A stretch of DNA of 32,182 nt. Origin: an uncultured bacterium (GTDB lineage: Bacteria; Hydrothermota; UBA3073; NMUJ01). Location of the stretch: assembly GCA_965612795.1 (NCBI GenBank), contig CBFDTI010000006.1, positions 1 to 32,182 of the forward strand. Direction: 5' to 3'. Of the stretch, positions 5,102 to 30,420 are shown piece by piece. The translations under genes were made by a program, and so were the position numbers. The notes under the pieces are model-generated. The model worked only from the letters and a program-made list of their open reading frames with translations. It was not told the origin of the DNA and ran no database searches. Numbering within the stretch: position 1 is the first letter of the stretch; every line of letters begins with the position of its first letter.

Positions 5102-5728
5102 CTACTTCACCACCCTATTCTTCAGCCGAGCTTCAAGGTACCCAAAAAAGAACCGTACCTTCAACAAAAATGGTATCATATCCCTATCATAATAGATACG
5201 CATACCTTCTTTCGCAAATATCTTTAGCTCCTCAGTATGTGGTGCCACCTCCCACACATCACCCACCTTACGTATATCCACCGGCACATCTATCGTCTTC
5301 TTGTTCGAATGCACCAACACCCTTATGGTAGTATCGTCACCCAAATCAAGTGTACGCAAAAAGTATATCAACGATATAATCGTATGTACATCATGTGGCA
5401 CCTTCACCGTATCACCATCGTATATGGCGAGTAATGATTCACTTGCAGGGACAAACCTCGCCCTCGTACGGCGTCGATAATTACCTTCGTGTACACTATC
5501 CTCGTAGTACATAACACGGAAGCTGGTATCCGTCAACACCTCATACATATCCGCCACTTTATAGAACCAACTAACTATACCCGTAGTCTGCTGTATCTCA
5601 CAGAACCGCAAGGTATCACCCATCTTCTCATACTCCAACTTTATATACCCCGCCTTTATGGGGCCAAAATACGCATCATACTCCAACACCTCTTGTGTAA
5701 ACGGTAACACAACCAGCCACACCAGCAA
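5102..5728 (-). CDS. DUF3108-like exported protein
   Basis: EVLEYDAYFGPIKAG, TTGIVSWFYKVAD, ISLIYFLR pattern; TTG start with GGAGG upstream. Confidence 0.65.
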   Translation of the reverse strand: MLVWLVVLPFTQEVLEYDAYFGPIKAGYIKLEYEKMGDTLRFCEIQQTTGIVSWFYKVADMYEVLTDTSFRVMYYEDSVHEGNYRRRTRARFVPASESLLAIYDGDTVKVPHDVHTIISLIYFLRTLDLGDDTTIRVLVHSNKKTIDVPVDIRKVGDVWEVAPHTEELKIFAKEGMRIYYDRDMIPFLLKVRFFFGYLEARLKNRVVK

Positions 5729-5730
5729 TA

Positions 5731-27012: not shown

Positions 27013-29004
27013 ATGATGTGGTTTATCTTTGTGATCTGCTTAACAACAACCGATATACTTCCGGTTGTATTACCTAAGGTAGGGCTTACTATTGACGAGC
27101 TATCGCTTGCACCCAACAAGTTATGGTTCACCTATCCTAGTTCGTACTTCACCTTACCGGTGGTCGAAGGTATACTTGCCACCCCATCAGCTGTGGATGG
27201 GTTCACACGTAGCTTCTATACCGCATTCTATGGGTGTTTCAACGATACGTTTAGGTTAGCGCCCGCAATACAGCATCTTATGCGACGTGCAGGTTACAAG
27301 TCGGGCGCATACGGTAGTAATCTTGTGCTGAAGGTAGATGAGGCTGCACCGCTCGTACATGCATTATCTGACCTTTACTATAGGTGTGGCGAACGTCCAC
27401 AGCATCGTGGGTTTGCTGGTTACGAGGAAGAGGATAGGCTTAAGTTATGGGTGGATACATTCACTGTGGTGCCATGGTCTGTACGTAAGGTAATAGCTAA
27501 ACTCATGTATGGGATGCTGGAGATAAGTTATTGGGTACGCTCGATGTACGAAGATGTTGACCTAACCAAGCTGTTGTACCTTGAGGAACATTGGTACTAT
27601 CCATCGGATCGCAAGTTCGAACTATACGCACAGGAAGTGGCTACTGACCTACATTATGAACTCCTATGGTATGCAACTTCATTGTTGGCTCACCTCATAG
27701 ATTCTGTACGTAATACGTTGATGGAATTATCCACACGTGACTATCCGGAATTTGAGCTCACCATCAGCACACCCATGGGTGACCTCATCATCGGTGGTGC
27801 AGGTGCTAACATTTATCAGTTACAGAATGCGTTTCTTGTGTTCGACCTCGGTGGTGACGACCGATACACAGGCCGTATAGCGGCTACGTATCATAACTTG
27901 CCAGTTGCAATTGTTATCGATCTATCCGGTAACGATGTGTATCATTCAGATCTACCCGCAGGGCTTGCTACGGGTATGTTTGGTGTTGCATGCTTGTATG
28001 ATCTACATGGTGACGACCGGTACGAGGGTAGCTCACATGTGTTAGGTGCGGGTTACTTTGGTGCTGGCTTATTGATCGATGAACATGGTAATGACATGTA
28101 TCGTGCCACCAAAGATATTGCTGAAGCTGCTGGCATTTTCGGTGTAGGGGTGCTGGTGGATATCACAGGTAACGATTACTATTATGTAGGGGCTGAAGGT
28201 CAAGGTTACGGTGGCCCAAAAGGAGTGGGGTTACTTGTAGACGTCACCGGTAATGATAGCTACGAGAGTGAGCTCGACCCACACGTGTTCGATCGTGCTG
28301 ATTACCACACAGATTATAAGTACAATGCTACATCGTCACAAGGTGCAGGTATGGGTAGACGTGGTGATGGTGACGAAGGTTATTCGTGGTCCGGCGGTAT
28401 AGGGGCGTTGCTCGACTTCTATGGGGATGATGAGTACCTTGCAGGTAGTTTCTCACAGGGTATAGGGTACTGGTTCGGTATGGGGTTGCTTATCGACCTA
28501 CACGGTGACGATACTTACAAAAGCATATACTTCACGCAGGGGTCGGCAGCCCACTTCGCAATCGGTGTACTATGGGATGTTGCGGGAGACGACCGTCATG
28601 AACTATTCGCACAGAAAGGTGCTGCACTGGGGTTTGGTTGGGATTGTACCGTATCGTTGCTTTATGATAGCACAGGTAACGATTACTATACAGCTGATCG
28701 TATAAGTTTGGGTTGTGCCGAGGTTAATTCAATCGCTATGTTCATAGAGCTTGAGGGTAACGATACCTACGAATTCACGGGTAAGCTGGGGTTAGGGGCA
28801 ACCGATGCACGTGGGCCATTACGTCCAGAATGGGATGCACGCCAATATTTGATGCCAGCTTTTGGCTTATTCTACGATGCAGAAGGTATAGACAAATATA
28901 CGCAAGGTGTGTGGGATAACAACAAAGTATGGTTTATACCGGATTCAACTCGCTGGAAGGCATTACCTCCACATAAGCGTGGTATAGGTATCGATTTAGA
29001 GTAA
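27013..29004 (+). CDS. Uncharacterised exported protein with ~12 DxxG(D/N)DxY repeats
   Basis: DLGGDDRY, DLSGNDVY, DLHGDDRY, DEHGNDMY, DITGNDYY, DVTGNDSY, DFYGDDEY and others; start ATG 27013 or 27016. Confidence 0.8.
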   Translation: MMWFIFVICLTTTDILPVVLPKVGLTIDELSLAPNKLWFTYPSSYFTLPVVEGILATPSAVDGFTRSFYTAFYGCFNDTFRLAPAIQHLMRRAGYKSGAYGSNLVLKVDEAAPLVHALSDLYYRCGERPQHRGFAGYEEEDRLKLWVDTFTVVPWSVRKVIAKLMYGMLEISYWVRSMYEDVDLTKLLYLEEHWYYPSDRKFELYAQEVATDLHYELLWYATSLLAHLIDSVRNTLMELSTRDYPEFELTISTPMGDLIIGGAGANIYQLQNAFLVFDLGGDDRYTGRIAATYHNLPVAIVIDLSGNDVYHSDLPAGLATGMFGVACLYDLHGDDRYEGSSHVLGAGYFGAGLLIDEHGNDMYRATKDIAEAAGIFGVGVLVDITGNDYYYVGAEGQGYGGPKGVGLLVDVTGNDSYESELDPHVFDRADYHTDYKYNATSSQGAGMGRRGDGDEGYSWSGGIGALLDFYGDDEYLAGSFSQGIGYWFGMGLLIDLHGDDTYKSIYFTQGSAAHFAIGVLWDVAGDDRHELFAQKGAALGFGWDCTVSLLYDSTGNDYYTADRISLGCAEVNSIAMFIELEGNDTYEFTGKLGLGATDARGPLRPEWDARQYLMPAFGLFYDAEGIDKYTQGVWDNNKVWFIPDSTRWKALPPHKRGIGIDLE

Positions 29005-30420
29005 CCTGTACGTGAATCTGTGTTTCAGGTATAGTTTGAACCTCAATCTTGCATTAGTATCACCCACGTGATACCACACAGCTGCTGCTAACTTCGTACC
29101 CCAATATAGGCGTATACCCAGGATGAGCCATTCAACCGGTATCTCGGTGGGTGGCTCCCCCCTCTCGATACTGTATTCAGCGGGATGGATGAGATCGCCA
29201 TCACCATGGTTAAGATATTCACACTGGAGTGCGATACGCCAATCTTCCCCCACGTAGAAATTGTATTCCATGTATACGTTGAGCACATCGTTACCTGCCC
29301 AACATCCCAACGGTACACCAAACAACGTATACGCGTTATCGAACGTATAGTGTGTGTATGTCCATTTAGATACGTAAGCCAATTCCATACGTAATGTACT
29401 CCTACTCCATACCTTATAGAAGCCCACCGCATATGCGTACTTGCTGGGTTGGCCTGAGGTTTTGAACACCACAATATCATCGTCGATAAACTCACCGTAT
29501 AGCTTGATACCAGGAGATGGTAACCATTCACAGTCGATACCACCAACCAAATTATCCCTACCACCAACACGTTGCCTGCGTTGTGCTACATAGTATATCT
29601 GTACGGGGTTGAAGAGGCGTGGCCATTCGGCGGGATCAAACAGCACCGTCTCGAACACACCTACCCTAAAGTTGCGGGCAACAAATATATCAACCCTTTG
29701 TGTAGCTAACCCCTGCAACCTACGGGTACGCTGGCCGAGTGAATCGCTCTCCACGTCACTGCTAAACCCTAACCCTGCAAATAATCGTATCCCTTTATGT
29801 GCAAACTTTATGTGATAGATGTAATTAAATGGTAACGAATATGCGGAGAGTGCCACAGCTGTATGATACATGGGACCATAACGTACTGGTATACGACCTA
29901 TCTTTATGGATAGCTTCTGGAAAGAGAGGTTTACCCAACCCTCGAAATCCTCCACCTCGATTACGTTGGAGTACCCGACTATCGGTTCGTGCTCGCGGTG
30001 ACGTGGATAGTGAGGTTCAATCAATGGACTATATATCGGACGGTTGGTTGTTTTATCCCAACGTGAGTATAAACCCACTTTGTATCGAAACTGTAAACTA
30101 CTGAGGTTGAGAAATAGATCACAGGCTACCCCCGCTATACCTACGTAATCGTGGCCAAACCAATGTATCATACCAAATGGGTTCACTGCAAGTAGACTGT
30201 GACGTACCAGCCTAAGCCTCTGGTACAGGGATTGTTCATAGCTACCAGTTGGTACAAGATGCGCAAGTATTGAACGCACTTCTTGTGGCTCCAAAGGATA
30301 TAGGGCTGGTAGGCTTACACCATGCGCAGTAGCTATGAATTCAAGTTGTTGCCAGTACAATGGTTTGTGGCAACTGATGAGCGGTTCCTCGAATACCAGT
30401 AATACTGCAAGTAGAATCAC
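28996..30420 (-). CDS. Outer-membrane beta-barrel, capsule assembly Wzi-like
   Basis: IGRIPVRYGP, GVFETVLF, FNPV, DNLVGGID, LYGEFIDDD, LRMELA, YTH, PLGCWAGND. Start reassigned to GTG 30420, right after the pruA stop. Confidence 0.72.
   Translation of the reverse strand: MILLAVLLVFEEPLISCHKPLYWQQLEFIATAHGVSLPALYPLEPQEVRSILAHLVPTGSYEQSLYQRLRLVRHSLLAVNPFGMIHWFGHDYVGIAGVACDLFLNLSSLQFRYKVGLYSRWDKTTNRPIYSPLIEPHYPRHREHEPIVGYSNVIEVEDFEGWVNLSFQKLSIKIGRIPVRYGPMYHTAVALSAYSLPFNYIYHIKFAHKGIRLFAGLGFSSDVESDSLGQRTRRLQGLATQRVDIFVARNFRVGVFETVLFDPAEWPRLFNPVQIYYVAQRRQRVGGRDNLVGGIDCEWLPSPGIKLYGEFIDDDIVVFKTSGQPSKYAYAVGFYKVWSRSTLRMELAYVSKWTYTHYTFDNAYTLFGVPLGCWAGNDVLNVYMEYNFYVGEDWRIALQCEYLNHGDGDLIHPAEYSIERGEPPTEIPVEWLILGIRLYWGTKLAAAVWYHVGDTNARLRFKLYLKHRFTYRLL

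Follow-up and report, generated by a model that had tools for sequence, protein, structure and literature searches.

We studied a 32,182-nucleotide stretch of DNA from an uncultured bacterium of the WOR-3 phylum (positions 1 to 32,182 of contig CBFDTI010000006.1, GenBank assembly GCA_965612795.1), here called the window, in which six proteins begin with a very short hydrophobic leader that carries no lysine or arginine (K/R). The contig, C6 in our numbering, belongs to a 1.42-Mb metagenome-assembled genome (MAG) of 128 contigs that is rated 99.5% complete; its ComM protein shares 65% identity with one assigned to "candidate division WOR-3 bacterium". An original prediction for this DNA had proposed that the lineage exports proteins through a minimal signal consisting of the hydrophobic core (h-region) only, and the families of the proteins concerned, the points at which their domain profiles start and the interchange of leaders among orthologues, all described below, lend support to that proposal. 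The six leaders in the window are as follows.

5699..5728, minus strand: leader of the DUF3108 protein (gene 5102-5728), MLVWLVVLPF, TTG start, without K/R
18829..18858, plus strand: leader of the NfeD protein (gene 18829-20103), MIAIFMALIS
22664..22696, plus strand: leader of the S8 subtilase, a protease (gene 22664-24364), MWVIAIFLFTG, its ATG immediately preceded by TAG
26326..26358, minus strand: leader of the GWxTD protein (gene 25084-26358; Pfam GWxTD domain), (M)MAIISLFIIN, reading TAA-GTG-ATG
27016..27048, plus strand: leader of a 668-residue repeat protein (open reading frame 26998-29004), MWFIFVICLTT
30391..30420, minus strand: leader of the Wzi-like protein (gene 28996-30420), (M)ILLAVLLVF, GTG start

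All six N-termini are present in the DNA as they had been described, with the amendment that two of the initial methionines are encoded by TTG (in the DUF3108 protein) and by GTG. Four of the starts (5728, 18829, 22664 and 26358) had been said not to be extendable, and each was found to have an in-frame stop 0 to 9 codons upstream. The TTG at 5728 is directly preceded by an in-frame TAA-CTG-ATA. The ATG of the NfeD gene at 18829 overlaps the stop of the upstream gene, and the eight codons between it and an in-frame TGA at 18802 include no ATG, GTG or TTG. For the repeat protein, to which a Pfam scan assigned no family, three starts are available (TTG 26998, ATG 27013 and ATG 27016), none of which places K/R before the hydrophobic run. 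The GTG of the Wzi-like gene at 30420 lies one base past the stop (TGA) of the upstream gene, and this start is not pinned because an alternative in-frame TTG at 30519, which overlaps the upstream gene by 98 nt, would add K/R. Nonetheless, GTG 30420 is favored, since 11 of the 14 orthologue rows shown for the window's class (this genome included) have short K/R-free leaders, with one canonical and two ambiguous (this genome, G000 in our sample, and G070).

To place these leaders in a genomic context, open reading frames (ORFs) of the whole genome were called with our own script, and a closed 5' end was required for the leader scan. A leader was termed forced uncharged if it had an N-terminal hydrophobic 8-mer and no possible ATG, GTG or TTG start put K/R before it. 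Among 1199 ORFs of at least 80 residues with a closed 5' end, 530 had an N-terminal hydrophobic window; 368 of these had no further membrane segment, and 103 of the 368 were forced uncharged. A stricter set, restricted to ORFs of at least 150 residues whose hydrophobic window lay no more than three residues from the first possible start, held 79 of 970 ORFs (8.1%) with an unavoidable K/R-free hydrophobic leader, and in all 79 the K/R n-region was absent for every ATG, GTG and TTG start. The same script run outside the phylum returned 15 of 906 ORFs (1.7%), most of them evidently cytoplasmic (Fisher p = 2e-11). That control comprised 78 loci of other phyla (Acidobacteriota, Bacteroidota, Ignavibacteria, Desulfobacterota, PVC, Firmicutes and others) together with 50 kb of E. 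coli K-12, and two WOR-3-like loci (0/7 ORFs) were left out of it. The lower frequency in homologous DNA of these phyla indicated that the pattern goes beyond chance and is not usual elsewhere.

The leaders have a common build: Met is followed by a stretch of 8-11 residues in which Leu, Ile, Val, Phe and Trp abound, Trp often standing at position 2-4, and the core gives way to a short series of small or polar residues (S, T, G, N and frequently P) and usually to an acidic residue at about position 12-14. Across the 79 proteins, positions 2-11 are dominated by L, I, V, F and W, which is within the h-region length (~7-15 residues) of a classical Sec signal. G, T, S and N become more frequent at positions 10-12, A is rare at positions 10-13, and charged residues are first seen at 12-14. 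The median distance from start to first charge was 13 residues for the short leaders versus 20 for the K/R-bearing signals of the same genome, with near-identical hydrophobicity of the best 8-mer (mean Kyte-Doolittle value 2.99 versus 3.00 for canonical signals). A strong Shine-Dalgarno motif stood in front of 34% of the 79 leaders; for first starts overall the share was 28%, and for internal ATGs it was 10%. We also considered whether short leaders mark larger proteins, as might be expected of co-translational export, and found no support for this (median 424 versus 353 residues, p = 0.11). BamA-like proteins on contigs C72 and C10 have two start options each, one with a K/R n-region and the other short and K/R-free (MLIYFFLVGLVVA, MIWLIILLAQ); because of such alternative K/R-free starts, the count of short leaders is probably too low.

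The proteins that carry these leaders are largely of the kinds expected outside the cytoplasm. A Pfam scan covered 66 of the 79 (13 were left out) and sorted them into 29 of exported type, 12 plainly cytoplasmic, three with N-terminal anchors and 22 with no or an ambiguous family. The exported-type group includes two Peptidase_C25 proteins and one Peptidase_M1 protein with tails of the type IX secretion system (T9SS), the S8 protease, a TonB-dependent receptor, a TolC-like OEP, ZnuA, Peripla_BP_2, Amidase_3, M23, a SurA-like rotamase, two GWxTD proteins (the second encoded, with a like leader, on another contig), DUF3108, two DUF5916 proteins, an amylase and others. T9SS cargo, TolC, TonB receptors and periplasmic binding proteins must cross the inner membrane, in keeping with the expectation that the carriers are extracytoplasmic. 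Within the 29, the first charge was D/E in 19 and K/R in 10, and Trp occupied position 2-4 in 15, compared with none of the 12 cytoplasmic proteins.

As a set defined a priori, we took all 41 matches in the genome to the T9SS C-terminal sorting domain. Twelve of these had forced K/R-free leaders, 18 could have K/R (most of which look canonical and at least two short), nine were fragments lacking an N-terminus and two ran off contigs. About half of the T9SS cargo keeps canonical signals, and both kinds of leader thus serve one functional class.

In the exported-type families, the domain profiles start just past the hydrophobic stretch and not within it, so the stretch is probably not the first strand of the mature fold. 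The first matched residue was 16 for DUF3108 (profile positions 1-208 match residues 16-202), 12 for NfeD1b_N (from profile position 2), 12 for Peripla_BP_2, 22 for ZnuA, 25 for Amidase_3 and ~13 for the first OEP match.

Orthologues were compared across 150 sampled genomes of the phylum. The NfeD protein at 30 phylum loci had 21 K/R-free leaders, five that were equally short with K/R at position 2-3, three canonical signals and one open case. For DUF3108, also at 30 loci, 19 leaders were K/R-free and 11 had K/R, all of them before the same PF..GE.L.Y motif. Thus, orthologues exchange one leader type for the other, short or canonical, while the conserved start of the mature part stays the same, and alignment within the phylum places ordinary K/R signals at the equivalent position. 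Among 20 class orthologues of the S8 protease, 18 cannot have K/R ahead of the hydrophobic run and two have extra upstream starts; "GG" codons derived from the Shine-Dalgarno motif often stand just before Met in these proteins, and the run repeatedly ends in a small residue (S, T or G). The short starts are kept in two genus relatives and across the class, and in samples of 100-180 kb from 19 other genomes of the phylum the short-leader index ranged from 0 to 14%. These leaders are used genome-wide and throughout the WOR-3 phylum, beside ordinary signals, on periplasmic, outer-membrane and T9SS-secreted proteins.

Based on these data, the leaders are probably Sec-type export signals reduced to their h-region. 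Their core length and their cargo (29 of 66 in exported-type families, 12 of the 41 T9SS-tail matches) fit a Sec signal while the n-region is missing, and so we class them as a variant of the Sec signal that stands outside the classical class. Other known classes fit less well. No lipobox (Cys at +1 right after the h-region), as in a signal peptidase (SPase) II signal, was seen in five of the six window leaders; the sixth, that of the Wzi-like protein, does have LISC, which follows two Glu residues. There is no Arg ahead of the core, and hence no twin-arginine (Tat) motif, in any of the six window leaders. The median uncharged stretch of 13 residues is shorter than the ~18-20 residues or more of a signal anchor.

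If the leaders act in this way, the hydrophobic core alone would engage SecA and SecYEG, with SecA driving entry through SecYEG. The N-in orientation might come from the free amine of Met1 and the acidic flank after the core, in place of basic residues, in line with the charge-difference rule by which acidic residues after the core favor N-in orientation. Methionine aminopeptidase spares Met when residue 2 is large; as residue 2 is mostly large in these leaders, Met1 should be retained. Trp near the N-terminus may hold the leader at the membrane interface. LepB would cut after the small residue closing the core (S, T or G), at about position 10-13, and this is the least certain step of the scheme, in which both export and cleavage via such leaders are read from sequence.

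Several observations weigh against this interpretation. Approximately 15 of the 66 scanned proteins are false positives of the filter: 12 cytoplasmic proteins (among them PurF, EngA, ThyX and GrpE; the start of some of the 12 is miscalled) and the three anchors (RNase Y, RmuC and LpxL, with uncharged runs of ~16 to 26 residues, longest in the first two). A further 22 have no or an ambiguous family, and the sorting into exported, cytoplasmic and ambiguous was our own reading of Pfam family names. The share of false positives equals the background of the filter elsewhere. An AxA-type cleavage pattern was not seen in the leaders of this genome, which has one LepB gene. In DUF3108 only eight hydrophobic residues precede the PF motif, and since orthologues with canonical signals have this motif in their mature part, a cleavage site is hard to place there. 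In addition, Skp carries a K/R signal both here (MRRIASILF...) and at 28 of the 30 closed loci of the phylum, the other two being K/R-free; the short leader is consequently a common alternative to the canonical signal and not its replacement.

The DUF3108 leader, which adjoins the conserved PF motif after eight residues, makes it a real alternative that the leaders cross the Sec channel uncleaved and are retained by the protein as a short hydrophobic tag, for instance as a weak membrane tether or a handle for periplasmic chaperones. The G, T, S and N at positions 10-13, where A is rare, also leave many leaders without a convincing -3/-1 site. We nonetheless consider retention unlikely. A stable transmembrane helix needs a longer stretch than the ~13 uncharged residues available, some of the carriers (outer-membrane barrels and T9SS cargo) cannot stay at the inner membrane, the LepB gene is present, and the hydrophobic run of S8 orthologues repeatedly closes with a small residue.

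Two further explanations appear very improbable to us, and about equally so. The leaders could be an artefact of start-codon choice, recoding or assembly, with true N-termini that are longer and have normal n-regions. The genome is indeed a fragmented MAG, and upstream starts are available for the Wzi-like protein, the BamA-like protein on C72 and the protein on C10. Against this stand the stops close upstream of four window genes, the Shine-Dalgarno motifs, the retention of the short starts in relatives, and a forced set that by definition has no ATG, GTG or TTG adding K/R. Stop-codon reassignment as a source of false starts was ruled out, as all three stops terminate long ORFs in this genome (538 TGA, 479 TAA and 268 TAG). 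The stretch could also belong to the mature fold of cytoplasmic proteins, for example as a first beta-strand. This does hold for the Rossmann-type and P-loop N-termini among the 12 cytoplasmic filter hits, whereas in exported-type families the profiles start after the stretch, orthologues carry cleavable-type K/R signals in its place, and the Trp at position 2-4 is confined to the exported-type side of that comparison. An export signal reduced to the h-region therefore remains our preferred explanation of the leaders.

The genome encodes SecY, SecA, one LepB, Lgt and one YidC. It had been suggested that Ffh be inspected for lineage-specific changes; neither Ffh nor FtsY nor signal recognition particle (SRP) RNA was found at all. 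The M-domain of Ffh (SRP_SPB, PF02978) had no match in this genome, none of the 26 candidates scored for the SRP54-type GTPase domain common to Ffh and FtsY (PF00448) reached E <= 0.001, and bacterial SRP RNA (RF00169) had no match. As positive controls, PF02978 and PF00448 were detected in 14 of 14 control genomes and RF00169 in 12 of 14. A tblastn search of this genome with FtsY and FlhF of relatives gave a best E of 0.028, compared with 1e-63 to 1e-106 for matches of the queries to each other. With Ffh, FtsY and SRP RNA not found, targeting in this genome would not be by SRP.

The same result was obtained across the window's class, in which Ffh and FtsY were found in 0 of 22 genomes. Six class genomes, in three of the families labeled f1 to f30 in our sample (f2, f3 and f5), have one SRP54-type match each; we rejected these as Ffh or FtsY because those tested (three of the six) were FlhF by NCBIfam, above cut-off. 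In the phylum sample, the GTPase domain (E <= 1e-10) and SRP RNA were missing together in f1-f7, f12, f18, f19, f20, f22, f25, f28, f29 and f30, and were present in nearly all genomes of f8-f11, f13-f17, f21, f23, f24, f26 and f27. SRP was thus not found in the whole class (22 genomes) or in at least nine further families of the phylum, with the protein and RNA parts absent from the same families. At E <= 0.001, five SRP-less genomes of good quality, among them a 100%-complete one made up of three contigs, had nothing or only weak partial P-loop matches. LspA (PF01252) was likewise not found in this assembly or in G070, and was found in 20 of the 22 class genomes, including the genus relative G105, so that its absence here is most likely an assembly gap. 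This case shows that absence from one genome is unreliable; the clade-wide triple absence of Ffh, FtsY and SRP RNA is weightier.

Short leaders were more frequent where SRP was missing. In pooled samples from the phylum, ten SRP-less genomes had forced short leaders on 83 of 820 ORFs (10.1%) and nine SRP-containing ones on 31 of 693 (4.5%), with p = 3e-5 by Fisher's test and p = 9e-4 by a rank test per genome, in a comparison of related genomes that are not independent samples. A strict link between short leaders and SRP loss was rejected, since SRP-containing genomes carry them too (6/93 in G030, 7/98 in G107 and 6/73 in G076) and only the frequency differs; for the same reason, SRP loss is no precondition for short leaders. 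The leader trait is thus phylum-wide and more frequent where SRP is gone, with a causal link as a hypothesis.

The single YidC of this genome lies at G000:C3:28793-29326. In a tree of 29 phylum YidC sequences (the cut ORFs of G099 and G009 were left out) its branch was very long, at 1.49 changes per column where the median was 0.29, and the tree has three changes of SRP state and is compatible with one origin. Mitochondrial Oxa1 and S. mutans YidC2 have long basic C-tails. The idea that a tail of this kind offsets SRP loss was unsupported, as the tail in G000 is eight residues long with a net charge of +1; among 10 SRP-less and 21 SRP-containing loci, tails in f18 and f30 were short and only some f5 and f6 genomes had tails of 23-39 residues. 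The SRP-less members are diderm, have T9SS, in some cases have flagella, and encode ~140 multi-spanning membrane proteins per genome.

From these findings we speculate, as a scenario that is credible yet falls somewhat short of being probable, that SRP has really been lost in a large part of the WOR-3 phylum (the class and at least nine families, including the 100%-complete three-contig genome) and that the leaders are part of a rewired, SRP-free targeting. Chains would then reach SecYEG/YidC via SecA or straight from the ribosome, with leaders becoming about twofold commoner once SRP was gone.

Ordinary signals coexist with the short leaders in the window, as had been noted, and another ORF has a leader of the short type.

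3610..3702, minus strand: 30-residue ORF with the same leader type, beginning MVASFLSLVLLN and then a stop, upstream of an RHS/CHAP ORF
682..2703, minus strand: canonical signal for comparison, MKYVVIFCLSYFAFIPFALSEE
3822..4277, plus strand: canonical signal for comparison, MRTFAVIILCLMASITAYAG
10630..11667, minus strand: canonical signal for comparison, MKWWNTFLLVIFLSSSVMAKE
11781..12179, plus strand: canonical lipobox-like signal for comparison, MRFLKLLTLSAVVLLSC, on a DUF4878 protein (Pfam)

The ORF starting at 3702 was correctly described as matching the leader type: its ATG has an AAGGAGG Shine-Dalgarno motif in front and is followed by 30 codons and a stop. It lies, on the minus strand of 682-3702, before an ORF with RHS repeats and a CHAP domain (2700-3626), after which comes a 673-residue beta-propeller-like protein with a canonical signal. 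A second RHS-like ORF runs off the contig at 1-531, and together with the 682-3702 region it looks like a broken or rearranged locus of polymorphic-toxin type. Positions 1-73 of the window are Illumina/Nextera adapter, with an exact 19-base mosaic-end match at 55-73 and flow-cell adapter-like sequence before it. Because the contig starts with adapter, the last residues of the minus-strand ORF at 1-531 are translated adapter and not protein. Elsewhere in the window, a GYD-domain ORF (116 residues; 22292-22642, minus strand) and the S8 gene (22664, plus strand) are arranged head to head with a gap of 21 bp as called. A start of the GYD protein at an internal Met (MLFITTLDV...) is more likely, and would leave ~125 bp between the two genes.

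Predicting which proteins a cell exports relies chiefly on signal peptides. Should leaders of 11-14 uncharged residues serve a third or more of the secretome in this whole phylum, much of that secretome is probably mislabeled by standard annotation, including the degradative enzymes that are the reason these organisms are studied. A natural, proteome-wide removal of the n-region could also show what SecA, SecYEG and LepB minimally need. The loss of SRP, if true, would mean that bacteria which appear to be free-living do without one of the few "universal" systems of the cell, and would make membrane-protein targeting without SRP testable in a natural system. In the literature searched, which did not include subscription journals, no description was found of short K/R-free signals in WOR-3 or of their natural, proteome-wide use in a phylum, a search pairing WOR-3 with the signal recognition particle found nothing, and natural SRP loss in free-living bacteria was not found, the only cases being from the laboratory and from organelles.

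The classical Sec/SPase I signal peptide has n-, h- and c-regions, of which the basic n-region is described as required (PMC9360617). The leaders resemble it in their N-terminal position, h-region-length core, extracytoplasmic cargo and interchange in orthologues, and in the presence of SecY, SecA and LepB. They differ in having no basic n-region, ~11-14 residues instead of ~20 and no AxA c-region, and in the enrichment of Trp at positions 2-4 with acidic residues directly after the core. Laboratory deletions of SRP are similar in that cells live without Ffh and FtsY; however, those deletions were made in organisms that naturally keep the genes, whereas here whole natural clades lack Ffh, FtsY and SRP RNA, and there is one YidC. 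Hikita and Mizushima, in J Biol Chem in 1992, reportedly found that E. coli signals without an N-terminal positive charge were rescued by a longer or more hydrophobic core. The principle shared with the WOR-3 leaders is that positive charge is dispensable with a strong hydrophobic core. The engineered signals, however, were laboratory constructs with lengthened cores in an SRP-containing host, whereas the leaders described here are natural, short, and proteome- and lineage-wide.

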